Shown here: positions 7,388-51,568 of the stretch, in pieces
Layout of the letters: each line of letters starts with the position of its first letter
How positions within the stretch are numbered: position 1 is the stretch's first letter
Assembly (NCBI GenBank): GCA_963768425.1
Contig: CAVYHV010000008.1
Location: 64,001-128,000 of the forward strand
Source of the DNA: Candidatus Bathyarchaeota archaeon
Lineage (GTDB): Archaea; Thermoproteota; Bathyarchaeia; Bathyarchaeales; Bathycorpusculaceae
DNA: 64,000 nt
Reading direction: 5' to 3'
Program-made: the position numbers and the translations under genes
Notes under the pieces: model-generated
Told to the model about the DNA's origin: nothing
What the model saw: only the letters and a program-made list of their open reading frames with translations
The model's database searches: none

Positions 7388-7956
7388 TCACCCTTGAAGA
7401 AGTACGTAAAAGAGCCGAAGCAGACGCCAAAACCTATGGATACTTCCTTACTCCTCAACCGGATCTGCTTCAAGGTTTTCTTGAAGGATTAAAGACGAAT
7501 GAAGACCGCTACGGCTACCCGCTGTGTCCATGCAGACTCACCTCAAACAACTTCGAATTCGACCGCGATATCATCTGCCCCTGCGACTACCGTGACCCAG
7601 ACGTCGCACAATACGGCTCATGTTACTGCCGCCTCTACGTCAACAAACAAGTGTACGAAAGCAAAAACCTGCCAGAAGTCCCGGAGCGAAGACCACTAGA
7701 CAAGCAGGCAAGAGCATACGGATCTCAAACGGGCGCCTCGGCTAAACCGACAACAGCGGGAGTAGACCAAAAGAAACCCCCCACGGCATCGCCGGAAGTA
7801 GGGAAAGCTCAGCCTACAGTCAAAAAGAAGCTATGGTATTGCAAACAATGCGGTTACGTGGTTTTCAGAGAGGACCCGCCATACGTCTGCCCTATATGCA
7901 AGGCGAAAAAGGAATTATTCGCGGAAATAGAGAGTTCAGTGGAGTTCAAGGGCTAA
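7384..7956 (+). CDS. ferredoxin:thioredoxin/disulfide reductase catalytic subunit fused to a rubredoxin-like domain
   Basis: CPC, CPC, CYC motifs plus CKQCG/CPIC. Confidence 0.9.
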   Translation: MITLEEVRKRAEADAKTYGYFLTPQPDLLQGFLEGLKTNEDRYGYPLCPCRLTSNNFEFDRDIICPCDYRDPDVAQYGSCYCRLYVNKQVYESKNLPEVPERRPLDKQARAYGSQTGASAKPTTAGVDQKKPPTASPEVGKAQPTVKKKLWYCKQCGYVVFREDPPYVCPICKAKKELFAEIESSVEFKG

Positions 7957-15208: not shown

Positions 15209-15287
15209 CTATTTCACCTCCTAAAAAACAATAAAAACAAAATGTTCAGCTGGATCAGACAAAAAATAATTCGAAAAAATTGGACTT

Positions 15288-15602
15288 TTACTCTTCTTCA
15301 TGTTCCTTGCCTGCTTGGATCAACCTTCGGACTCTTTGCCCGCCTCTGTGTCCTGCTTCTTCAAGACTTGTTTTCCCCATTGCTTCATTTGTTCCTTCAT
15401 GCTGCTTGGCTCTTTCAGACCCGCCTTTGCTACCTATCTCACTGTAAAACTCTGGACCTCGTTCCGCAGAAACCTTCTCGCCGCCTTTTCGACCGATTTG
15501 TTCATAAAATTCGCGGCCATGAGTCGAAGCGGTTTTTTCTCCACCTTTCCTTCCTGCCTCAGCGACTGTCATTTTGCCCTTCTTTTCCTCACGCATACTC
15601 AA
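15288..15602 (-). CDS. KGG/GsiB-like general stress protein (multiple repeats)
   Basis: EAGRKGG, EFYEQIGRKGG, EFYSEIGSKGG, EAGHRGG; RBS puts the start at ~15596-15602. Confidence 0.88.
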   Translation of the reverse strand: MSMREEKKGKMTVAEAGRKGGEKTASTHGREFYEQIGRKGGEKVSAERGPEFYSEIGSKGGSERAKQHEGTNEAMGKTSLEEAGHRGGQRVRRLIQAGKEHEEE

Positions 15603-15842
15603 AAACGTCACCTCCATTAGAACCGAGCAAAAGTTAATAATATAAAAAGCCAAACAACCGCTCATAAACTTATGTGGTTGTTGCATAACTGCAACATACA
15701 AACTAAGTCTTTGTATCTGTTTCTCGTCTATGAAGAAATAAACAGGAAATAGATAATTCCAAAAAGGTATTATAACAAATAAGTAAATGAGTTAATTTAA
15801 ATATTCCAAAGAAGTCAGCTCTATAATTATTGGTAACCATCA

Positions 15843-17324
15843 ATGAAAATAGTTCTCATAAATCCGCCGCAGACATTTTATCCAGGCTCGGAACCACCCG
15901 CTGGCAATCTGCCTCTCGGATTAATGTACATCGCCGCAATGCTTATCAAATCAGGTTACCAAACCGAGATTTTTGATGCTTTCATGGCTGACGGTTTATT
16001 CCAAAGAAACGGCGAAACCGTAAACGTAGGCATGTCATTCGAGCAGATAAAACGTGAAATTGATAGTCGAAAACCCGATATTTTAGGAATAGCGGGGCCG
16101 TTCACTTGCCAAATAGAAAACTCGGTTAAAATTAGCGATTTAGCTAAACAGCTTAATCCAGACATTTTAACGGTTGTAGGTGGTCCTCATGTCACTACTG
16201 TCCAGAAGGGGTTTCTGGAAGAGGCAAAAAGCGTTGACATCGCTGTAGCAGGCGAAGGCGAATACGTCATGCCTGAAATAGCAGCCTTTTTTGAAGGAAA
16301 AAAGGCTTTAAATGAAATTCTAGGCATTGCCTTTCGCCAAAATGGAGAAGTCAAAGTAAACCCTTCGAGAGATTTCATCAAAAATCTGGATGATCTTCCT
16401 TACCCAGCCTATGACTTAGTTGACATGGAGAAGTACCTGAATCCCAAAAAAATAGGCTACCGAAGCTTCAGAAAACGAGCCATATCAATGGTAACCAGTA
16501 GAGGCTGCCCGTTCAACTGCTGCTTCTGCTCAGTTCACCTTCACATGGGCAAGGGGTTCAGAGCACACTCTGCAAACTATGTCTTAAACCACATCCAATA
16601 TGTGGTTGAAAAATTTGATGTCAAGAACATTTTCTTTGAAGACGACAACTTAACCCTTGACTTGGCAAGGTTTGAAGCGATCTGTGATGGGTTGATTATG
16701 AAGAAAACTGCGATTGGTTGGGAAACCCCAAACGGCGTACGTGCTGACTGTTTAGACTTGAATTTGCTGAAGAAAATGAAGAAGTCAGGTTGCAAAAGCG
16801 TCTTTTTTGGAGTTGAGTCAGGCGACCAGCAGATACTAGATAACGTAATCTGCAAAAACTTAGACCTAAATCGCGTAGTTGAAGTTGCGAAAATCTGCAA
16901 AGACATTGACCTGAAAACGGGTGCCTTCTACATCATTGGTTTTCCAGGCGAAAAGAAAGAAAACATGCAGAAAACAGTTGATTTCGCCCTAAAACTCAAA
17001 CGGGATTATGACGTTGGTATGCACCTTTTCATGGCTACACCCTCGTACGGAACAAGACTGTACGAAGAATGCAAGTCTAAAGGATATATTCAGGAAAACT
17101 TGGGCTGGAACTCCTTTGCAGCGGCTCGTCAACCGAAAGGAATGCCTCTGATTTCCACGCCGGATTTTGCCCCTGAAGAAGTGAAAGAAATCGCTGCTAA
17201 GGCGCTTGAAGAATATAAAAAATTGTCTTTGAGGAATCATCTTAGGAATCCTCAGAGGGCTTTGAAAACGGCTTTTGAGCAGCCGCAGCTCATTTTGAAA
17301 TACATCAGGAATCTTTTCGCCTAA
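15843..17324 (+). CDS. cobalamin-binding radical SAM protein (class B)
   Basis: PLGL.YIA, VGGPH, GEGE, TSRGCPFNCCFC, FEDDN, GVESG, GFPGE. Confidence 0.9.
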   Translation: MKIVLINPPQTFYPGSEPPAGNLPLGLMYIAAMLIKSGYQTEIFDAFMADGLFQRNGETVNVGMSFEQIKREIDSRKPDILGIAGPFTCQIENSVKISDLAKQLNPDILTVVGGPHVTTVQKGFLEEAKSVDIAVAGEGEYVMPEIAAFFEGKKALNEILGIAFRQNGEVKVNPSRDFIKNLDDLPYPAYDLVDMEKYLNPKKIGYRSFRKRAISMVTSRGCPFNCCFCSVHLHMGKGFRAHSANYVLNHIQYVVEKFDVKNIFFEDDNLTLDLARFEAICDGLIMKKTAIGWETPNGVRADCLDLNLLKKMKKSGCKSVFFGVESGDQQILDNVICKNLDLNRVVEVAKICKDIDLKTGAFYIIGFPGEKKENMQKTVDFALKLKRDYDVGMHLFMATPSYGTRLYEECKSKGYIQENLGWNSFAAARQPKGMPLISTPDFAPEEVKEIAAKALEEYKKLSLRNHLRNPQRALKTAFEQPQLILKYIRNLFA

Positions 17325-40384: not shown

Positions 40385-42019
40385 ATGACCGATGTAGTGT
40401 TCACTTTTGAGGTTCATCAGCCCCACAGGTTGAAGCGCAAGCTGTTTTGGGAAGGCAAAATTTTCAGTCGTCTCACCAAAAACGAACTATTCGACTATTA
40501 TTTTGACAACGAGAGCGACAGGGAAATCTTTAAACGAGCTGCACGCAAATGCTATTTCCCATCAAACCAAATCCTGCTCGACTCAATAGACAAACACAAA
40601 CATGACTCTAAGCAGGTCAAGGTGTCATTCAGCATCTCAGGCGTCTTCCTCGAACAATGCCAAATGTTCGACCCAGACCTGCTTGAAACCTTCAAGCAAC
40701 TTGCTCAAACCAAAAGCGTCGAATTCTTAAACCAAACCTATTACCACTCAATCGCCAGCCTTTACCCCGACAAAGAAGAATTTATCGAACAGGCGAAGAT
40801 GCACAAGCAAACCGTTAAGGACTTGCTTGGCTACACACCCAACGTTTTCGAAAACACCGAATTGCTATATAATAACACTATCGCCAAGACAGTTGAATCG
40901 TTAGGATACAAGGGCATTTACACTGAAGGGGTCGAGAAAATCCTCGGCGAAAAATCGCCCAACTATCTCTACACTCCCAAAGGCGCAAAAAAAATCCGTG
41001 TATTGCTTAGGAACTACAAGCTTACTGACGACATCGGCTTTCGATTTTCAGCAAGATGGTGGCCCGAGTGGCCGTTAACGGCGGACAAATACGCCGGTTG
41101 GCTGGCGAGTGCACCAGGTCAATGTATCAACATTTTCCCCGACTACGAAACTTTCGGCGAGCACCATTGGCCTGAAACTGGCATACACAGTTTCCTGCAG
41201 CATCTTCCGGATGAAATACTAAAGTTTGACAGCTTGCAGATGTCAACACCATCCGAAGTCATAGCCAATAATGCACCTGCAGGTGAAATCGACGTGCCTG
41301 AAGCTCAAGGGACGGTTTCATGGGCAGACGTGCAGAGAGACCAATCTGGCTGGTTAGGCAACGTGATGCAGTGGGCGTACTATACAGCGCTGCGTCGTTT
41401 GGAGCCGTTCATCAAGGAAGCCGACGACACTGAATGGCTCAGGCTGTGGCGTGATTTCCAAACAAGCGACCACCTCTACTACATGTTCACCGCAGGCGGA
41501 GGACCTGGCGAAGTGCACTCATATTTCAGCCCATACGAGTCACCTATGGACGCCTTCGCCGTGGCTCAAACCTTGCTAAACGATTTTGAATCAAGACTAA
41601 GACTATCAATCTTAACGGCAAACGAACCCTTCTTATTCAACACGGGAGTTGGAAAAGAATTTTACACGGGAACAATGGCTTGGAGCCTAAAAGGATTCAT
41701 TAAAGCTCTCTGCCAAGTCGACTCGAAAGCTATCGAGTTTCATATCCAAAACGGCGACTTTGAAAGCTGGGTAAGAAATTCTCTTAAAGACCAGAAACTG
41801 GCGTCTCAGATTAAACGAGCTTCAGGCTTCAAAAGAAAAAGGAGAAAAACTACGAGAAACACTGCTGAATTTCGCGAAGAAACGTTATGCGATATTAAAC
41901 GAACAAATTCAGGACGCAACCAAGCTGTTTTAGGAACTAACGCGTTTATAAGGAAAGTCTCACTAATAAATAACTTGGTACGGTGCATTATCGATGAGAG
42001 ACGAGCTTCCCTTTCCTGA
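40385..42019 (+). CDS. GH57 alpha-amylase with C-terminal DUF5752-like domain (3' end probably frameshifted, true stop ~41933)
   Basis: FEVHQP, TYYHS, NTELLY, DYETFGEH, SWAD, QTSDH.YYM. Confidence 0.9.
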   Translation: MTDVVFTFEVHQPHRLKRKLFWEGKIFSRLTKNELFDYYFDNESDREIFKRAARKCYFPSNQILLDSIDKHKHDSKQVKVSFSISGVFLEQCQMFDPDLLETFKQLAQTKSVEFLNQTYYHSIASLYPDKEEFIEQAKMHKQTVKDLLGYTPNVFENTELLYNNTIAKTVESLGYKGIYTEGVEKILGEKSPNYLYTPKGAKKIRVLLRNYKLTDDIGFRFSARWWPEWPLTADKYAGWLASAPGQCINIFPDYETFGEHHWPETGIHSFLQHLPDEILKFDSLQMSTPSEVIANNAPAGEIDVPEAQGTVSWADVQRDQSGWLGNVMQWAYYTALRRLEPFIKEADDTEWLRLWRDFQTSDHLYYMFTAGGGPGEVHSYFSPYESPMDAFAVAQTLLNDFESRLRLSILTANEPFLFNTGVGKEFYTGTMAWSLKGFIKALCQVDSKAIEFHIQNGDFESWVRNSLKDQKLASQIKRASGFKRKRRKTTRNTAEFREETLCDIKRTNSGRNQAVLGTNAFIRKVSLINNLVRCIIDERRASLS

Positions 42020-42875: not shown

Positions 42876-44079
42876 ATGAAAGACGACTTAACTGTAATGA
42901 TGCTAAGCTGGGAGTTTCCGCCAAGGGTAATCGGAGGAATTTCACCTCACGTTTTCTTCTTATCAAAGAGCCTTGCCAAACAGGGTGTAAAAGTTTACGT
43001 TGTAACATGCGATTTTCCTGATGCGCCGGCACATGAAGTGATTGACGGCGTAGAAGTCTACCGTATCGACTCGTACAAGAACCCGTCGCCCGACTTCGCC
43101 ACATGGGTCTACTTGATGAACCTTAACATGCAAAAAGAAACAGCGGCGCTGACGAGAAAAATCGGGAACAAAATCGATCTGCTACACTGCCACGATTGGC
43201 TTGTCGCTAACGCGGGAATAGGACTCAAACATGTTTTTCGAAAGCCTCTTTTGGTAACGATGCATTCCACTGAAATCGGAAGAAGAGATGGGTTGCACAA
43301 TGACACTGAGAAAATGATTCATGAAACTGAAGCGTGGCTAACTTATGAAGCGTGGAAGGTTGTTTGCTGCAGCGACTACATGATTTCACATGTCAAATGG
43401 GCTTTCGGACTGCCCAACGACAAGCTGGTCATGGTTCCCAACGGCGTAAACACCAGATCTACAATACGACTCTCGAGGACTTGAAGGATTTCCGAAACAA
43501 GTTCGCGTTGCCTGAAGAAAAAATAGTTCTTTTCGTAGGCAGGCTGGTGTACGAAAAAGGCATCCACATATTAATCAACGCTGTTCCTAAGATCCTGGAA
43601 AAAGTCAACGCCAAATTCATAATTGTCGGCAGCGGCTACATGAAGGAGCAGCTCCTCAACATTGTACGTAGCATGAATCTTGAACACAAAGTTCTATTCG
43701 AGGGATTTCTTGACGAACAAACCCTGCTTAAACTCCAACAGTGCGCAGACGTGTCCGTCGTGCCATCACTATTTGAACCATTTGGGATTGTAGCGTTGGA
43801 AGCTATGGCTGCAAAAAGCCCCGTCGTCGCATCAGATACGGGCGGCCTATCCGAAATCATCCAGCATGATGTAACAGGAGTTAAAGTTTACCCAAACAAC
43901 CCAGATTCATTAGCATGGGGAATAAGCAAAGTCTTACTGGACGATAGTATAGGCACCGCATCAGAGAGAACGCTTACAGGAAAGTCTTGGAAATATACGA
44001 TTGGGAAAAAATCGCGCAGCAAACCAGACGCATATACGAGGGCGTTTTAGGCGAGTATTCAAACAGTTTCTGGGCTTAA
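42876..44079 (+). CDS. GT4-family glycosyltransferase (frameshifts ~43455, ~43948); its 3' end is the integration target
   Basis: SWEFPP..IGG, HDW, FVGRL..EKG, EPFGIVALEAM; true C-terminus YDWEKIAQQTRRIYEGVLGEYSNSFWA* ends at TAA 44077-44079. Confidence 0.9.
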
Positions 44080-44080
44080 A
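44049..44080 (+). repeat. left attachment site
   Basis: aggcgagtattcaaacagtttctgggcttaaa. Confidence 0.9.
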
Positions 44081-45048
44081 ACACCAGATACTCGCCTTAT
44101 AGAACAAATACCCAAAATAGCCAAAGTGCTTGAAAACTTGGAAGCATTAGGCAAAGAACAAACAACAAGAAAAACCTACAAGAAACTACTTTTAAGATTA
44201 GCCAACAAAACAGACCTAAACGAACCAAACCAAGTCAACCTTGCAATAGCACGATTCAAAAAATTCAACCGCGCAAACAGGCAAAGACACAAACAAAGAC
44301 GTAACCAATGCATACAAAGACCGACTAATATCAGCCTACAAAACCTACGTTGAATACTATAACATACAAAATTGGAAGCAGCCCTATTACACCCCAGAAG
44401 ATAAAGGCATCCAGCCACCAAATGAGGAAAAAGTAAAATTCTTAATAGCAACAGCCAAAGAACCCCTAAACATAAAAATAATGATAATAGGAGAAACAGG
44501 ACTAAGACCAAAAGAAGTCACAGGCACAAACGGACTCCAAGTAAACGACATCCACAAAGACACAAAAACATTAACCGCAAGAAGCCTGAAAGGATGCAAC
44601 CCAAGACCACCAATGCCAATAAGCGACGAACTACTAACAGCACTAAACAAACTACGTAACAAAACACAACCTAAAAGGCACAGACCTATTATTCACAGGG
44701 AATACTCAGAAACACTATCAAACCATTTTTACGACCACAAGATAACTTTTAGCGAAAAGACTAAACGACCCAACAATAACTCAAATAAGACTCTACGACA
44801 TCCGACACTACTACATAACAAAGAAAGTTAGAAAACTACAAAACATAGAAATAGTAAGACAAATCACAGGACACAAAAGACTAAACACACTACAAAGATA
44901 CATCCACATAGCACTAAACCAAACAGGCGAATGGATAATCAGAATAAACCAACGACAAAGAAAGAGTCAGATGCAACTCCTAAAGGAAGATTTTACTTAT
45001 GTAATAACAACACCAGACGGATACATGAAATTCAAAAAACCAAAATAA
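44051..45048 (+). CDS. int: tyrosine recombinase/integrase, C-terminal part (several frameshifts)
   Basis: ETGLRPKE (Arg), LKG (Lys), RLYDIRHYY, GHK, QRYIH (Tyr) across frames; frame open from the att site. Confidence 0.85.
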
Positions 45049-45134
45049 ACATACATTTTCTCAAACTACCGCGACAGAGAAAGTAAAGGAACGCAAATGC
45101 AAAGACTTAAAACTAAAGTGAAATCAAATAAGAT

Positions 45135-45637
45135 TTGATAAGAAAGAAGGCAATATCAACGAGTTTCTTTAATAGAAAAAAATGGAATGAAGACAGCTTC
45201 CAGTTATCATTAGGTGAAACTGAGCTATCTTTTGGAGATGAATTGAAAGGGACTCTTAGCATCAAGTCCGACGTTGAGTTCGATATTGAAAAGATTTGGG
45301 TTAGGCTAAGCTGTGAAGAAAGTCTTCGGGAAAAGACCACGCAATTCTCTACGATAACGATAATTTAGACCTTAGTGATGCCGTACATGTGAACGCTGGG
45401 TTTCATAAAGAATTTCCTTTTGTTCTCAAGCTGCCATCCGATGGAAGAGAAACATATCATAGTATTCACGAAAATGTGCGATGGTTAGTGGATGCATACA
45501 TCAAAGTAAAAGGAATGAAATATGCCATAAGTACTGAGGGAGGCGGCGAGATTCTTGTCACAAAGCCTGAAGATTCCAACTATACCCATAAAACAAGTCA
45601 AAGAGGTTGCGAGATACCAAACACCTTTGTCAAGTAA
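45135..45637 (+). CDS. arrestin-N/SpoOM-like beta-sandwich cargo protein (frameshifted; may be fused to the next ORF)
   Basis: GDELKGTL.I......IEKIWVRL.C.E...EFPF.LKLP......YHS....VRW.VDA. Confidence 0.5.
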
Positions 45638-46121
45638 GGCGACGAAATTGTATTGTCCTAATTGTGGAAAGGAAGTTCTGAATGAGGATGCTATTTTCTG
45701 CCCATATTGCTCCAAACCATTAAGGTCAGCAAAAAAGCAATCTGGTTTTCCAACTACCGCTGGCATATTGGCAATAATCGCTGCATGCATAACAATTGTG
45801 ATTGGTATTTTTGAATTCCTTAATTTTGCAAGTGATTATCCATATAATTACCGTTATTATATCCCCTATATATTTGATAATTTATTTGTTGGAATATGGA
45901 GTACTATTTGTTTCGCAGTTGGATTATCGGCTGCGATTTATTCAATAAAAAGAAAGCGTTTCGTATTATCAATAATTGGTAGCAGTCTGCTATTGGTTAC
46001 GGCTTTTTTGTATTCTATCATTACACAAGGCTTCGGATTGGTGTTTCTCGGAATACCCGTCTTGATTTTCTCAATTTTGAGTATTGTTTTTGTGGCAATC
46101 TCAAAAAGCGAATTCACATAG
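45555..46121 (+). CDS. zinc-ribbon + 4-TM membrane protein (cargo)
   Basis: YCPNCG......FCPYC followed by four hydrophobic helices. Confidence 0.7.
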   Translation: MSQSLKIPTIPIKQVKEVARYQTPLSSKATKLYCPNCGKEVLNEDAIFCPYCSKPLRSAKKQSGFPTTAGILAIIAACITIVIGIFEFLNFASDYPYNYRYYIPYIFDNLFVGIWSTICFAVGLSAAIYSIKRKRFVLSIIGSSLLLVTAFLYSIITQGFGLVFLGIPVLIFSILSIVFVAISKSEFT

Positions 46122-46257
46122 AACAAATCGTTGAATCATAGAATAACACCCGCTACGAAATTAAACTTAACGTTTAATCAGTACCTTCTTAGCCCTCTCA
46201 ACGATAAATTCTTTAAATCCGCATAACGAAGAAATAGCCTGAACATAGCAAGAAGAG

Positions 46258-46865
46258 ATGAAAATCAAAACGAACAAGAAGATTTTGTTTATCTTGGCGT
46301 TTCTTACAACCCTCGTAATAGGGATTGTGATAATCTCTCTTTCTTTTATTATTATTGGGAAATCGCTAACATAGCTGAATATGTCGCGTTATATGTGTCA
46401 GCTTCAACGGCAATTTTTACCTCAATCAAGACCTTGATTGAACCAGAAGCAAAAACTGAACCTATTCTAGAATCACCCCCCAACTTAAATCCGAGTGCCA
46501 AAAAAGCTATCGCTGGGTTTTTGTCAGGAAAGGTATTTGTCGATTTGTTGATAGAAAATGTGGGCTATTCTATAGCAAAAGATATTGAGGTGAAATGTCA
46601 CTTAATTCCAAATTCTTCCCGTGCATCTCAAGAATGATGGGTTTTTTAAACATTCAATGCTTGCACCAATTCCTAAAGACCCGCCTATCACGTTTTACCT
46701 TTGGAATTCGTTGATCTTGACAAACTGGCTAACCAAAAATTGGTCGTCGAAGCATCATTTTCAAATGAGGAAAACAAGAAGCAAGAAGTTTTGAGACTGG
46801 AAGTGGCATTTGACAAAGTAGAAGGTGAGTTAGCTCAGAGACTTGAAGACGAAGGGTTCCATTAA
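46258..46865 (+). CDS. membrane-anchored hypothetical protein (cargo, frameshifted)
   Basis: MKIKTNKKILFILAFL N-terminal TM, continuing through ORF 46395-46637 (IENVG.SIAKDI.V). Confidence 0.45.
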
Positions 46866-46901
46866 GTTAGAGCAAGAGCCAAAGGACTGGTGAACCCCAG
46901 G

Positions 46902-46961
46902 GATTTCGAATATCAATTATCAACATCAGATAATTGCATGCAGTTCAGAAAACCAAAATAA
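46902..46961 (+). repeat. second copy of the integrase 3' tail
   Basis: DFEYQLSTSDNCMQFRKPK* versus integrase DFTYVITTPDGYMKFKKPK* (44989-45048); 43/60 nt identical by hand count. Confidence 0.75.
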
Positions 46962-47202
46962 TCTTATTTTTTTCGTTCCGCTCCGCTGCGCTCCGCTTCA
47001 CTCCACCAAAAACAAGATAATTTCTATCAATTTCAAGCTTATTCAGAAATGAAACCGATCATCTTTCAATTGACTTCGGAATCAAGTCCTTCGGAACAAT
47101 CGACTCTTAATACAAACACTACTATCTAACGCAAACCGACGACAAACAAAACGCAGCTTACCATTTAAACTCTTAACGTAACAAATTCCGTAACCTAACT
47201 TC

Positions 47203-48501
47203 TCAACAAAACTCACATGGCAATTTATCATACCAACAAGGTTCTACCATAAGCATCAAACTCAAACCAACTCTATACCGAGAAGCATAGGGCTTACGCC
47301 TATCACTCTCAGCAACAACTTGCCACACCTCATAACCATCCTCAAGCGCAGGCATCCAGCTATCTCGCACATAATCAACCGCATACTTAGCCAACGCAAA
47401 AACCTTACTACCCAAATATTTAGCCTCAATTAACTCATGCTGACAAAGCGGACAGAGCATCTTACGTACCTCATAAGTAACTTTGAGCTTCCGATAACTA
47501 GTGCAACCGAACCAAGTAACAACAACGTGACGAATCCTGACAATGTTAACAGATAAAGCCTGACTCATTCAGAAACCCCCACCTTGATAGCACTATGATT
47601 TAACTGATACCAAGCCGTGCCAAAAACTGTAGCACGTTCAGCCTCGCATTTAATTATATATTTATTTTTCTTGTAAGAACCCCTGAACTCGCTCTTCAAA
47701 TCCACCGCAACCAGCACAAACAAACTCATTACCATGCTCCTCAATCAAGCGACCACTACGAGAACGAAAACGCCTAAGCGTTTTAGCGCAAGACCTACAC
47801 TTTCCGTACCCACCAAGAATATACGCAATACTATGTATGTGGGGGCTCCAAGTCCACCCAAACAAAACACCTTTTTCAAGAGACTCTTGATAATTCGCAT
47901 ACCTAAAACCATGAAAAATGAGACAACCGCCAACAACGCCAACCTCAGACAGAATTCTCTTTACTTTAATTCGGAACTTGTCGTTATTAAATTCAGCTAA
48001 ACCCAAATCGGAATAAGGCGGACTGATAACAATGTGCTGGGGAGCACCAAACCGCTTAGACGCAGCCTCTATACGCTGAGCGATATGATCAGCTTCACGC
48101 TTAGCCCAACCCGAAAAACAGCAAACAGGACACCTCGGATTATTGCACGAACGATGAATCTTACGCACAAAATTCTCGCCAGCGTGTGAGACACCATCCA
48201 AATTAGACTGACTATGAAGCTCAAGACGATTACAAATCATAAATTTCTGAAAAGTACCACAATAAGAATTAGTTTGAACCCCCTGACCAACCAACTCCCA
48301 AAAACCGTGATGAGCACTAACATCCTTCGGAGCTTCACAATCACCAAACGACTTAGCATAATCATAATAAAGCTTCTCAATATCCTTCTCAGATAACCCA
48401 GTAACGGAAGGAAAAACCGAAGCAGAAAAAACAAAAAACCCAGAAAAATGAAGTAAAAGGAACCGCAGGAAAATTATAACATCCAAAACAGGAAGCATCA
48501 A
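47203..48501 (-). CDS. rep: HUH-superfamily rolling-circle replication initiator-like protein (frameshifted)
   Basis: HIVISPP (motif I), WSPHIHSIAY (HUH), FGTAWYQLNH (Tyr, ~47595-47625), several CxxC motifs. Confidence 0.7.
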
Positions 48502-48740
48502 ATCACCACGCCCTTATCACACCGCCAAACAACACGGAAAACCTTGGATTTAGGATAATACCGAAACCTCACACGCTTACCACGAGAGCGGCAAGCACCA
48601 GAACCCGTGCCACAAATACAAAGAGGTAAACCATAACGAGTCCCAATTTGCTGAGCTAACTTGCATCTTTCTGCCCATTCCTTCTCAGCCTTGCCAACAA
48701 CAAGCGAACCAAGAACCAAAGGTTCTAACATATTAATCAA
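48498..48740 (-). CDS. small Cys-rich protein upstream of rep
   Basis: 80 aa, overlaps the rep ORF start, CxC...C...C. Confidence 0.5.
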   Translation of the reverse strand: MINMLEPLVLGSLVVGKAEKEWAERCKLAQQIGTRYGLPLCICGTGSGACRSRGKRVRFRYYPKSKVFRVVWRCDKGVVI

Positions 48741-48780
48741 AAAGAAAATGTGACCGCGAGTAAAGATATAGCTTCATAAG

Positions 48781-49362
48781 CTGGCAAAGCGATACATAAC
48801 CGCGACGGAGAAAACCTACACGAATACAGTAGGAATCTTAAACGGCAAACAAAAAATCCACAACAAACAAGCATTAACCCTACTTTATAATAACGAACCA
48901 CTTACCACATGGGAAATGGCTAAAAAATTAACAAATGTTGGAAACAGACGAAGTCTAAACTCCACTTTAAACAAATCAATGCGCAAACTCGAAACTAAAG
49001 GATACGTTTACCGAAAAGACGACGATAAATGGTATTTAAAACTCAAAGGCTTCATAGTAGTACTCCTAATTCAGCCAGAACCCAAAAAATGGAGCGATAA
49101 ATGGACAACAATTTTTATGAATAACCTAAAAACCAACGAAAACGACAGGATGATAGAATTCACCAATCTCGGTTTTAGCAACACCAAAATACAAGAAATA
49201 TCAAAAGCCATCAATAGATACTTAGGTGACTTTGAAAACTGGGTTGCATTCTCAAAAACCGTGGAAAAGAAAAAAATCGATATGGACAAAATCACAGACC
49301 AAACATTAGTACTCATGCTAGTATCAGAAAACCTTGACTTGTCTAAATTCTCAATAGCCTAA
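48781..49362 (+). CDS. winged-helix regulator of the element (start uncertain)
   Basis: Frame open upstream of ATG 48916; PLTTWEMAK...LNKSMRKLETKGYV...W.L..KG. Confidence 0.7.
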   Translation: MAKRYITATEKTYTNTVGILNGKQKIHNKQALTLLYNNEPLTTWEMAKKLTNVGNRRSLNSTLNKSMRKLETKGYVYRKDDDKWYLKLKGFIVVLLIQPEPKKWSDKWTTIFMNNLKTNENDRMIEFTNLGFSNTKIQEISKAINRYLGDFENWVAFSKTVEKKKIDMDKITDQTLVLMLVSENLDLSKFSIA

Positions 49363-49721
49363 ATTTCAATCCAATTCAAATTTCATCCCTAAATCCAGAC
49401 GATACGCTAAAAGCCGAACCTCAAGACAACCGTTCCGTCAAAATGACCACAAACTCCAAAAAATTATCAGGAATAAACAAGACCATAAAGACAGAGAACC
49501 GCATTTCCCCCAGAAGCAGTTCTCTACATTAAGGTCTATTATCCCCATAGTGAAAAGGACACAAAAATTAAGCAAACTAAATTTTTGAACCAAACCACTA
49601 TCACCCCACATTGACCCTTATCTGACTCACCACTTACCTACACCCGATTCACCCGCACCCCATCGAAATTTTTCGAGAAAAATTTAGTAAAGCCTGAGCA
49701 GACAAGAAACAAGTAATAAAC

Positions 49722-49830
49722 AGGGGACATATTCCCCTACCATACCTCTTCTAAACAGGGGACACATTCCCCTAACGTACCCTTTTTGGAAGCCAGTAAG
49801 GGGACAGATTCCCCTACCATACCCTTTCTA
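49722..49830. repeat. three ~31-bp iterons, each containing an AGGGGA-N5-TCCCCT palindrome
   Basis: Copies start at 49722, 49757 and 49799: aggggacaNattcccctaMcRtacc. Confidence 0.85.
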
Positions 49831-50122
49831 AGGAATATATGTATAAGAAAAAATTAGTGCTCACTCACCGCAAACGCAAATAGCCCGCCAATCGTACCAC
49901 ACCAATTTTTCACGCAATACAAAAACCCAAGCAATCTTTACTTTGTCAAAGAAGATTAAACAAAGAAAGATAAGCAGAAAGAAAAACAGAATAGACCAAT
50001 AACTGAAAAGACCAATTTATTAAGCAGATAACAACCTAAAAACAGACCATAAATAGAAAACAAAATTAGAAATAAGACTTATAACTAGCCAAACACACAA
50101 CATACTCCACAGATGAATTAAA

Positions 50123-50180
50123 ATGACAGCAACAACAGAACCCAATAAATTAGTAAGGCTTAAGGCGAGTATTCAAACAG
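50123..50180 (+). CDS. integrase N-terminal fragment
   Basis: ATG at 50123 reads MTATTEPNKLVRLKASIQT into the att core, in the same frame as the integrase C-part at 44051. Confidence 0.7.
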
Positions 50181-50194
50181 CTTTTGGGCGTAAA
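50163..50194 (+). repeat. right attachment site (displaced original host 3' end)
   Basis: aggcgagtattcaaacagcttttgggcgtaaa. Confidence 0.9.
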
Positions 50195-50203
50195 CCCCAA
50201 GCT

Positions 50204-51568
50204 CTATTTGCCTATGACCTTTACATTTTCAACTTGAATCCAAGGGGAAATCAGTTGCCCCATCTGACGCTCATTGCTGCCAATTAAGCTGATGTTTTTG
50301 AGTACTTCAAAGATGTTGCCGGCTAGCATGACGCCTCTACTGCAGTGGGTTATTTCGCCTTTCTTGATCTTCCAAGCAGGGGTTGCCACCACCGAGAATT
50401 CGCCGCTTACCGGGTTACTGCTGTGTGCACCTTGCAGATAATATACCATTAAACCGTCATCGATCTCACTTAGCATTTCATCTGCCGTTTTGTCTCCCGG
50501 CAGTATATGGAAGTTTGTTGTGTCGATGCTTGGGGTTGACAGGTATCCTGCGCGTCCCGCGTTTCCAGTGCTTTGTTTTCCTTCCTTTTTCGCTGAGTAA
50601 CTGTCATAAAGGAAACCGCGCAAAATGCCCTTCTCGATGATTGCTGTTTTCTGATGTGGCACGCCTTCACCGTCAAAAGCCCACGTTCGTAGGCCGCCTG
50701 CGAACAATCCGTCATCGTAAACTGTTAATTTATCCGAAGCTACTTTTTCGCCGATTTTCCCCTTAAACGCAGACTGATTTCGCTGCACACTATCCGCTCT
50801 CACTGCATTAATCAACGTGTAGGCGAGAAGATCCTGCAGCGCAAACTGAGTGAGAATTAGAGTGGTGCTTTTGGTTTCTACTGACTTAGTTTTTAACGCA
50901 GAAAGTGCCAGTTTCGCCGCTTCTTTGCCGACCCAAACTGGATCAACCTCATAGCTTCTTGATGCATTGAATTCGAAGCAAACGGGCGTAACAGAGATGC
51001 CTTCTTTTGCCACGGTGGCTATGCTGCATTCTACAACTGTGCCCTTGTCAAAACCCGAGATGCCGCTTGAGTTGGCGACAGCGTTAGAAATGTAAGCGCT
51101 GCCTATACCCCCTTCAATGGGGAACACTCTTTTGTCAACTTGCCCAGCAGCCTCAAGCATTGCTGCAGCGACTTCGACGAGTTCCCCTGACTCTAGTTCA
51201 ACAACCCGTTCATCAAAGGTTTTTTCAGGTGAAGCGTAAGTTTCACTTCCTGGCAGTCCTTTCCAGTCTGCGTCAGGTTTGCTTGCTCTTGCCGCGCTTA
51301 AAGCCCTTGAGATTACGTCTTCGACAGCGGTTGGGTCGTCGATTACGTTTGTGTAAGCAAAACCCATCGCTTTTTCAGCGACCACGCGGATGCCTAATCC
51401 TCGGTCAATGATCCTGTTAGTCTTGCTAATCTGGCCCAGTTCGATGCCGATGTTTGTTGCTTGTCCTTCGTAAACGTAAGCCTCCGCTTCAGAAGCTCCT
51501 TTCTTAAGGGCTTGACTCACCGTGTTTTCCGCTAAATCTACCATTACTTCTTTTTTAAGCACTGCCAC
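50204..51568 (-). CDS. pmbA: PmbA/TldE-family protein
   Basis: GLGIRV, FDGEG, STGNA, SGEFS; no HExxxH. Confidence 0.9.

Follow-up and report, generated by a model that had tools for sequence, protein, structure and literature searches.

The window analysed here is a stretch of 64,000 nucleotides from the genome of a Candidatus Bathyarchaeota archaeon (assembly GCA_963768425.1, contig CAVYHV010000008.1, positions 64,001 to 128,000 of the forward strand). The genome, labelled G000, comprises 2.96 Mb in 33 contigs with 44% G+C, and the region of interest lies on its contig C8. Between a gene for a GT4-family glycosyltransferase (GT) and a convergent gene for a TldD/PmbA-family metalloprotease, the window carries a cryptic element of 6,145 bp (44049-50193) bounded by two attachment (att) sites, attL and attR, whose integrase (Int) gene appears to be divided, with one part, int(N), at the right end of the element and the other, int(C), at the left end. 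Labels of the kind G016, G072 and G108 for other genomes, and L045 and L057 for loci, refer to a set of 120 genomes of the same genus. The features on which the argument rests are the following:

42876-44079, forward strand: host gene for a glycogen-synthase-like glycosyltransferase of the GT4 family (the window's pieces of the gene match Pfam Glyco_transf_4 and Glycos_transf_1)
44048-44050, forward strand: TAG in the integrase frame, directly before ASIQTVSGLKTPDTRLIEQIPKIAKVLENL and in the same phase relative to the att core
44049-44079, forward strand: attL, an 18-nt core (44049-44066) followed by 13 nt that are element-derived by comparison with empty sites
44051-45048, forward strand: int(C), body of a Xer-like tyrosine recombinase, ending in TAA at 45046-45048, with a weak PF00589 match on its last piece
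44088-44097, no strand assigned: inverted-repeat arm complementary to the start of the att core (44049-44058)
50078-50088, forward strand: TATA-like box CTTATAACTAG; the int(N) ATG lies 45 nt downstream
50123-50164, forward strand: int(N), an ATG and 13 codons (MTATTEPNKLVRLK) reading into attR, from the frame and the comparison with relatives
50163-50193, forward strand: attR, the 18-nt core followed by the original host 3' end (agc ttt tgg gcg taa), from comparison with the empty site of genome G074
50204-51568, reverse strand: host TldD/PmbA-family metalloprotease gene, the right-hand host flank, convergent with the GT gene

The ends of the element lie in a pair of direct repeats (family D3, 44046-44087 and 50160-50201) that are 83% identical over 42 nt, and within which the att repeat covers 31 nt: a perfect core of 18 nt (AGGCGAGTATTCAAACAG, at 44049 and 50163), then 13 nt with three mismatches. 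A search of the whole 2.96-Mb genome with either att copy gives, beyond a length of 14 nt, no match other than that copy and its partner (E 7e-5). The final 10 codons of the GT gene, stop included (44050-44079, with TAA at 44077-44079), fall inside attL, whose element-derived part re-encodes the host C-terminus (...SFWA-stop) and, read one base out of phase, gives the integrase residues ASIQTVSGLK. In the host frame both attL and attR read GEYSNSFWA-stop, and the three differences between them (agt/agc, ttc/ttt, gct/gcg) occupy third codon positions, where they are synonymous for the host, and second positions in the integrase frame, where they exchange V/A, S/F and L/R. The end of the host gene is thus replaced by a synonymous one, and therefore about 30 nt encode both proteins in two phases; the GT and Int frames overlap by 31 nt. 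The TAG that stands before int(C) takes its T from the host arm, while the element arm has an A at this position and so reads AAG (Lys), the base preceding the core being the only difference. A prediction made earlier from the letters of this stretch alone had already placed the repeat, int(N), the TAG and the host frame where we find them, had seen the integrase frame as blocked by the TAG at 44048 in the integrated state, and had described the host C-terminus as encoded in another frame with three synonymous differences, all of which proved correct. The host C-terminus is rebuilt identically in the compared elements at the GT site. Across the genus, no unusual synonymous-site conservation of the att core was found, third positions being 51-81% conserved, like those of neighbouring codons. 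The inverted repeat at the site, whose downstream arm lies in int(C), is perfect over 10 nt in attL, with a spacer of 29 nt, and grows to 12 nt with the element arm at attR (attR positions 2-13 equal the reverse strand of C8:108099-108088). It is conserved in all four elements known at the GT site and absent from the host attB side.

Relatives supply the empty site. With window positions 49994-50800 as a query we obtained matches in 114 of the 120 genomes, and many of the alignments start at query positions 162-171, that is, at window 50155-50164. We compared the 29 best loci from other genomes, inspecting 1.5 kb of flank. The tips of the GT and protease genes are 6-67 nt apart in 20 of these 29 loci, one further locus has a gap of 249 nt and another one of 965 nt (G127, which holds a remnant), and seven have no GT end within the inspected flank, among them G072 and G108, which are occupied by elements of the same family. 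The empty site of the close relative G074 is one base off the window's attR, and that of G088 equals the attR of G108 exactly. The three marks of integrative elements that target and restore the 3' end of a protein-coding gene, namely a direct repeat at that end, last codons and a stop borne by the element, and empty sites in relatives, are all present. The intact GT orthologue in G108 has 401 aa and finds its best match in TIGR02149, with a score under the cutoff of that model. At the same GT/protease junction, G003 (C1, L046) and G077 (C28, L047) carry about 4 kb of other DNA without this integrase, and G077 has in addition a duplicated fragment in which the protease 3' end is fused to the GT 3' end; the junction seems to act as a hot spot that takes up different kinds of insertion. 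In the G127 remnant (C4, L044; about 950 bp, oriented positions 15272-16253), attL, roughly 20 initial codons of int(C) and the side with int(N) and attR are still there, the integrase body is gone, and the displaced original host 3' end bears a 1-nt insertion.

At the right end of the window's element, ATG 50123 opens a 54-codon open reading frame (ORF) that begins MTATTEPNKLVRLKASIQTAFGRK and, as predicted, runs into the right att site in the integrase phase. An ATG with 11-17 codons reading into attR in this phase is present in 4/4 elements at the GT site, and similar peptides of 15 residues occur in three cousins of the element that target a tRNA-Ala gene:

G000, GT site: MTATTEPNKLVRLK
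G108, GT site: MTETATPNKLLRLK
G072, GT site: MKTTESKNVALK
G127, GT site: MSTVTETKEEVKKDVALK
G016, tRNA-Ala type: MSKQPNPKKLDRLIE
G058, tRNA-Ala type: MNKQAHPEKLDRLFE
G061, tRNA-Ala type: MNEQTPPEKLDRLFE

The att core stands in the same phase behind int(N), in attR, and before int(C), in attL, in G000, G072 and G108. The TATA-like box, either CTTATAACTAG itself or a variant of one to two bases, is found about 45 nt before the ATG in six of these seven elements, the exception being G072, and the same six have in common a leader that ends in ATTAAA or GTAAA before the int(N) ATG. When the ends are joined in silico, uninterrupted ORFs of 343, 341 and 382 codons result for G108, G072 and G016. The predicted in-frame joining of int(N) to int(C) upon circularisation is thus reproduced in relatives but fails in the window's own copy, where the joined frame is ended after 114 codons by the first frameshift. 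A contiguous homologue, P0005 (335 aa, 59% identical), begins MTTPIEP, like the window's MTATTEP.

In the tRNA-Ala cousins the att site is the T-arm sequence GCGGGTTCAAATCCCGC, the integrase bodies are only about 32-35% identical to the query, and int(N) leads in frame into the att copy on the other side of an element of 5.5-7.5 kb, behind a TATA-like box and leader shared with the elements of GT type. By their sequences these cousins are independent support for the predicted int(N) frame. Across the genus, a search at E <= 1e-30 gave hits in 20 of 120 genomes, from which 25 integrase loci were compared: three are of GT type (G000, G072, G108), four read AGS(N/S)PARSTF or GSNPARSTF through or beside a tRNA-Ala, and others begin EAGALS, with L066 lying over an antisense tRNA-Arg. 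The N-terminal segments of the predicted integrases track the target across the genus (GT type, tRNA-Ala T-arm type, others), which answers the suggestion, made with the original prediction, to look at whether the N-termini of homologues vary with the target site. For L057, a 61% relative examined as a possible second protein-coding target, the integrase comes after about 450 nt of non-coding sequence, and for the tRNA-Ala element of G022 (L060) the search for a partner att yielded only a 15-nt match outside the tRNA before the contig end. The attR repeat of the element in G061 (C2, L090; reverse strand 7518-7697) runs about 70 nt past the T-arm into a sequence resembling the start of int(C), with a 60-codon ORF, and may have been left by an element that occupied this tRNA earlier. 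The att core in the GT gene (44049-44066) and the tRNA-Ala T-arm att (L061, 281-297) share, in the same phase of the int frame, the words xAG GCG xGT and TCAAA; this could be the route of a target change in the lineage, though so short a match may be due to chance.

The integrase body is uninterrupted in the copies of G072 and G108, which occupy the same site with 329-codon int(C) genes and whose element flanks are 95% and 83-84% identical to those of the window, respectively. Both match PF00589 well above its gathering cutoff of 27.1 bits (G072 2e-12, 47.7 bits; G108 3.7e-12, 46.8 bits), the last int(C) fragment of the window reaching 20.7 bits, under that cutoff. Between G072 and G108, int(C) has a dN/dS of 0.125 and is therefore under purifying selection; the corresponding values are 0.021 for the host GT gene (G072 against G108) and 0.043 for the host protease gene (G000 against G108). 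The dS of int(C), 0.62, lies below those of the flanking host genes (1.70 for the GT and 1.01 for the protease gene), so that the integrase looks younger than the divergence of its hosts, which fits horizontal movement, with the caveat that composition bias may also shift dS. In an AlphaFold model of the G108 body, built from a 36-sequence alignment (mean pLDDT 88.7), residues 1-10 have pLDDT below 50 and the first helix spans residues 14-32, so that the att-encoded residues are predicted to form a disordered linker. The element of G072 (L045, C1:78500-93500) combines the same int(C) (95% nucleotide identity) with about 10 kb of wholly different cargo and a different int(N) type, like that of G127; it looks chimeric, as would follow from recombination between tandem or successive elements through their int(C) parts.

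As to the enzyme, all 36 aligned family members match PF00589 and none matches PF16795 at E <= 0.1. The best solved relatives are archaeal XerA structures (4a8e at 2.1e-14 in the profile search; 5hxy and 4a8e at the top of the fold search), and no SSV integrase chain appeared among the PDB sequence matches at E <= 1, nor among the fold matches listed at E <= 0.001. The NCBIfam XerA model NF040815 scores 65.3 bits against a cutoff of 220 bits, so the window-family integrase is not XerA. A search of a phage collection returned 12 records, all of bacterial phages, with no archaeal virus matched, and one of a plasmid collection returned two records, from Candidatus Thiodictyon syntrophicum and Vibrio parahaemolyticus.

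The best explanation for these observations, and in our view a highly probable one, is that the window holds a small cryptic Bathyarchaeia element (44049-50193) whose integrase gene is split by its own att in the end of the GT gene. The attachment site would lie within the tyrosine recombinase gene, some 14 codons after the start and in a disordered linker, and recombination with the last codons of the host GT4 gene would split the recombinase gene. The promoter, the ATG and 14 codons (int(N)) would stay at the right end, reading into attR, and the 329-codon int(C) would come to lie at the left end, with no conserved start and behind an in-frame TAG supplied by the host. At the same time the element arm would swap the final codons and stop of the host for a synonymous copy, leaving the host protein unchanged, and excision would rejoin the parts into an ORF of about 343 codons. 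Judged from sequence, the architecture is of SSV type ('suicidal') because of the intact int(C) of the sister elements, the rejoined ORFs, the conserved int(N) and TATA-like box and the tRNA-Ala cousins, and the enzyme is Xer-like. The notion, put forward in the original prediction, of a self-inactivating integrase at a protein-coding target that restores the host enzyme draws support from the relatives and from the identical host C-terminus.

Several points weigh against this explanation. The window's copy is broken, so that this instance cannot now work as described, and integrase activity is itself a prediction. The elements of G000 and G108 are homologous (83-88% nucleotide identity) and therefore lend no independent support to the int(N) frame. 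At least one clade is unsplit: L074 has an ATG right after the tRNA-derived segment, and the integrase family therefore has both split and unsplit members. The crossover point is bounded only to the 18-nt core, whose letters change along with those of the host from G000 (TATTCA) to G108 (TACTCC), alike in both copies, a pattern that simple site-specific exchange does not explain. Nor did a free form come to light: a scan of metagenomes gave three loci, namely two integrated attL at the same site and one 61%-identical relative elsewhere, and none of them in a free form; a scan of viral contigs gave no match; seven protein clusters, looked up for the closest relatives, contain P0005 with 335 aa and otherwise nothing but shorter forms (236-306 aa); and the Logan contigs of four public runs contain no joints, contigs being unable to reveal rare forms. 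The public runs listed as holding the region are 20 of DNA and 0 of RNA. While the anatomy, conservation, selection, promoter and empty sites are shown here, recombination activity, the exact crossover and a present-day free form are inferred from integrated copies.

How the broken copy is to be understood bears on whether this element could still move. The window's int(C) as assembled is not one open frame, which had escaped the original prediction together with two frameshifts in the GT gene: it shows several frame switches, a stop after codon 100 and, relative to G072 and G108, six private indels (near 44271, 44649, 44700, 44743, 44940 and 44972), and two 1-nt deletions, near 43457 and 43948, are private to the window's GT gene. 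If these were assembly errors, the architecture would be the same and the element intact and potentially mobile, a possibility that we consider real though unlikely. It gains some ground from the GT gene, in which synonymous and non-synonymous changes number 13:2 on the G000 branch (16:3 on that of G072): the gene is therefore still constrained, its deletions make little sense unless they are sequence errors or damage of very recent date, and they look more like assembly error, and since this neighbour has two, some of the int(C) indels may be assembly errors as well. Single in-ORF indels relative to G072 occur in other window genes too, near 41818 and 61453, and contigs of the four short-read-style runs show a G072-like state at the indel positions; most of the Logan contigs over the int region come, however, from another strain, about 95% identical to the window, and therefore do not test the indels of G000 itself. 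Six indels in 1 kb also far exceed the density over the rest of the roughly 40 kb aligned to G072, where in-ORF indels are few and most others are intergenic. Furthermore, int(C) has accumulated 12 synonymous and 16 non-synonymous changes on the G000 branch against 15 and 5 on that of G072 (Fisher p = 0.04), an excess that indel errors cannot make. The window's int(C) copy has probably decayed. For the host genes with private 1-nt indels relative to G072 (and to G108 where compared), at about 41818-41962 (the tail of a GH57 gene) and 61453, the substitutions show strong constraint; the assembly probably contains scattered indel errors, and frameshifts in this genome should therefore not be taken for pseudogenes without checking.

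Two further readings concern the split itself, and we hold both to be very improbable. The integrase could be an ordinary, lambda-type one encoded beside its att, with an internal start such as GTG 44126 and a promoter of its own, the 50123 ORF running into attR by chance. That GTG (codon 26) exists in G000, where TTG follows at codon 30, and in G072, where the next canonical start is ATG at codon 144; gene callers use it, P0001 and three cluster mates being annotated at 304 aa, and the L074 case shows a start just after the att-derived segment in some family members. The original prediction had named homologues starting at GTG 44126, and a 50123 frame lacking conservation, as findings that would tell against a split gene. 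In G108, however, codon 26 is GTT and no ATG, GTG or TTG precedes ATG at codon 144, and the 50123 frame recurs in the four GT-site elements and in three tRNA-Ala cousins. A start at codon 26 would also cut into the first predicted helix (residues 14-32), removing 12 of its residues, and would lose the (L/Y)I(E/Q)Q(I/L)P motif, a conserved stretch through which more than 100 database homologues reach upstream of codon 26. Moreover, frame, peptide, leader and TATA-like box of int(N) are kept across GT and tRNA types even at the low identity of their int(C). The other reading is that the split does not inactivate, the integrated int(C) being expressed without excision from a non-canonical start (ATT/ATA) or as a GT-Int fusion made by frameshifting. 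Purifying selection on int(C) in two integrated copies, the overlap of the GT and Int frames one base out of phase, and a genome search that found no helper integrase copy of the same clade in G000 would all suit it. Against it, the low dS of int(C) relative to the flanking host genes fits recent horizontal movement, and so selection in the free form, and the conserved promoter and start of int(N) would be pointless; no slippery motif or stimulatory structure was seen, and none was looked for.

Integrases of SSV type (type I, 'suicidal') are documented as split on integration (PMC7253208, PMC8371274; these and the other papers cited by such numbers are drawn on in part). As in SSV1/SSV2, pTN3 and pT26-2, attP is here contained in the int ORF of a tyrosine recombinase, each end of the element has one part of the gene, int(N) or int(C), with neither complete, and expression of the whole gene would have to await excision. 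According to the parts of a review drawn on here, suicidal integrases carry PF16795 (Phage_integr_3) and, as its authors infer, go back to a single origin (PMC8371274). With PF00589 throughout and PF16795 nowhere, the family described here differs from the enzymes of SSV, pTN3 and pT26-2 and therefore stands, by the criterion of that review, outside the SSV clade; the likeness to SSV1 and pTN3 drawn in the original prediction thus holds for the architecture and not for the sequence family. SSV-type targets are reported in these sources to be tRNA genes (PMC7253208, PMC8371274), whereas the target here is the end of a protein-coding gene. The host also differs, belonging to a wetland or peat lineage of Bathyarchaeia and not being a thermophile, unlike most hosts of SSV-type elements. 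A last difference is the size of int(N), about 65 residues in SSV1 and only 11-17 residues here, so that the split chiefly removes the promoter and start.

For Thaumarchaeota, one split integrase of SSV1-like kind is reported. In NitEve-E3, a cryptic element integrated in the genome of the mesophilic archaeon Nitrososphaera evergladensis, integration likewise splits the integrase, which is described as SSV1-like, and the element has an MCM helicase (PMC6563490), whereas the present enzyme is Xer-like and its element has no recognisable replication gene. The same source reports 14 of 68 thaumarchaeal elements in the 3' ends of protein-coding genes, with a stop supplied by the element and with empty sites as a check (PMC6563490), and integration into the 3' ends of archaeal protein-coding genes is also treated in section 19 of PMC8371274. 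In the parts drawn on, the protein-gene elements of PMC6563490 are not described as having the att inside the integrase ORF, nor as being under a dual-coding constraint. Our full-text search of the literature found no self-splitting integrase with its att in a protein-coding gene, though Supplementary Table S2 of PMC6563490 could hold one, and the combination is absent from the portions drawn on of PMC6563490, PMC8371274, PMC7253208, PMC10541130, PMC13573593 and PMC4158269. Restoration of the 3' end of a host gene is an old theme; what is new here is that it goes together with a split integrase. Phage 21 and e14, in icd of Escherichia coli, bring a substitute 3' end that is mostly synonymous and keep the host enzyme. 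They are bacterial, with a lambda-type integrase gene separate from attP, without splitting and without an overlap of two frames. Archaeal XerA (4a8e, 5hxy, NF040815) is the closest solved or curated relative by sequence and fold; it is a chromosomal dif resolvase and, unlike the integrase here, neither borne by an element nor split.

Taken together, the comparisons allow a broader reading that we offer tentatively, as somewhat short of an even chance: the self-splitting layout would have arisen independently in a Xer-like family of mesophilic Bathyarchaeia, outside the PF16795 clade (as delimited in the parts of PMC8371274 drawn on); the att would lie in a disordered linker and be freely swappable; one lineage would have exchanged the tRNA-Ala T-arm for the last codons of the GT gene as its target; and the split would be a built-in directionality switch that separates promoter and start from the body. 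If so, the move from tRNA to GT gene created a site that encodes the host C-terminus and the integrase linker in overlapping frames. The literature, so far as drawn on here, treats self-splitting integrases as the peculiarity of one clade, mostly of thermophilic archaea and tRNA genes. Here the same layout would be found in a common Xer-like family of peat and wetland Bathyarchaeia, and an embedded att could be protein-coding, with 30 nt under two coding constraints and under recognition by the recombinase. As the severed part is tiny (11-17 residues and the promoter), inactivation would be essentially regulatory. The sister elements form a natural series, with one recombinase scaffold and att sites of tRNA type or gene type, which could show how a target changes and, as asked in PMC8371274, whether non-tRNA sites require dyad symmetry. 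Gene callers label such integrases as N-terminally truncated "XerD" and miss int(N), and such elements are therefore undercounted.

The remainder of the element consists of cargo and repeats:

45060-46900, no strand assigned: extra cargo of about 1.9 kb, not in the G108 element, flanked by a 71-nt imperfect direct repeat (D1)
45555-46121, in the extra cargo: ORF for a zinc-ribbon membrane protein (zinc-ribbon Pfam matches)
47203-48740, reverse strand: conserved cargo ORFs of 121 aa, 279 aa and 80 aa (from the ORF list and relatives)
49722-49831, no strand assigned: three 33-nt direct repeats (D2), each containing an AGGGGA-N-TCCCCT palindrome, about 250 nt upstream of the int promoter

The 71-nt repeat (44989-45059 and 46902-46972, 70% identical) takes in the 3' end of int(C) and is single copy in G108. 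The strand composition changes inside the extra cargo, which could be a nested insertion or what a second element in tandem has left behind. Window positions 45141-45537 have an 83%-identical copy at the extremity of contig C9 of G000 (C9:277505-277895), which could belong to a second element. Among the conserved ORFs, that of 279 aa has a 289-aa orthologue in G108 with a dN/dS of 0.156. No Pfam or PHROGs family was found for the 279/289-aa, 121/101-aa, 110-aa and 80-aa ORFs, nor an NCBIfam family for the 289-aa ORF, the only one searched there; the 148-aa ORF has no Pfam match and one weak PHROG of unknown function (E 0.0038). A rolling-circle Rep, guessed at for the cargo from an HIH motif, was unsupported and dropped. 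The 33-nt repeats are candidate iterons or sites for a regulator or operator. Finally, a plus strand strongly enriched in A and depleted of G marks 44000-45000 and 47000-50200 (AT skew to 0.57, GC skew to -0.47), irrespective of the strand of the ORFs, which points to a strand-specific mutational bias of the element.

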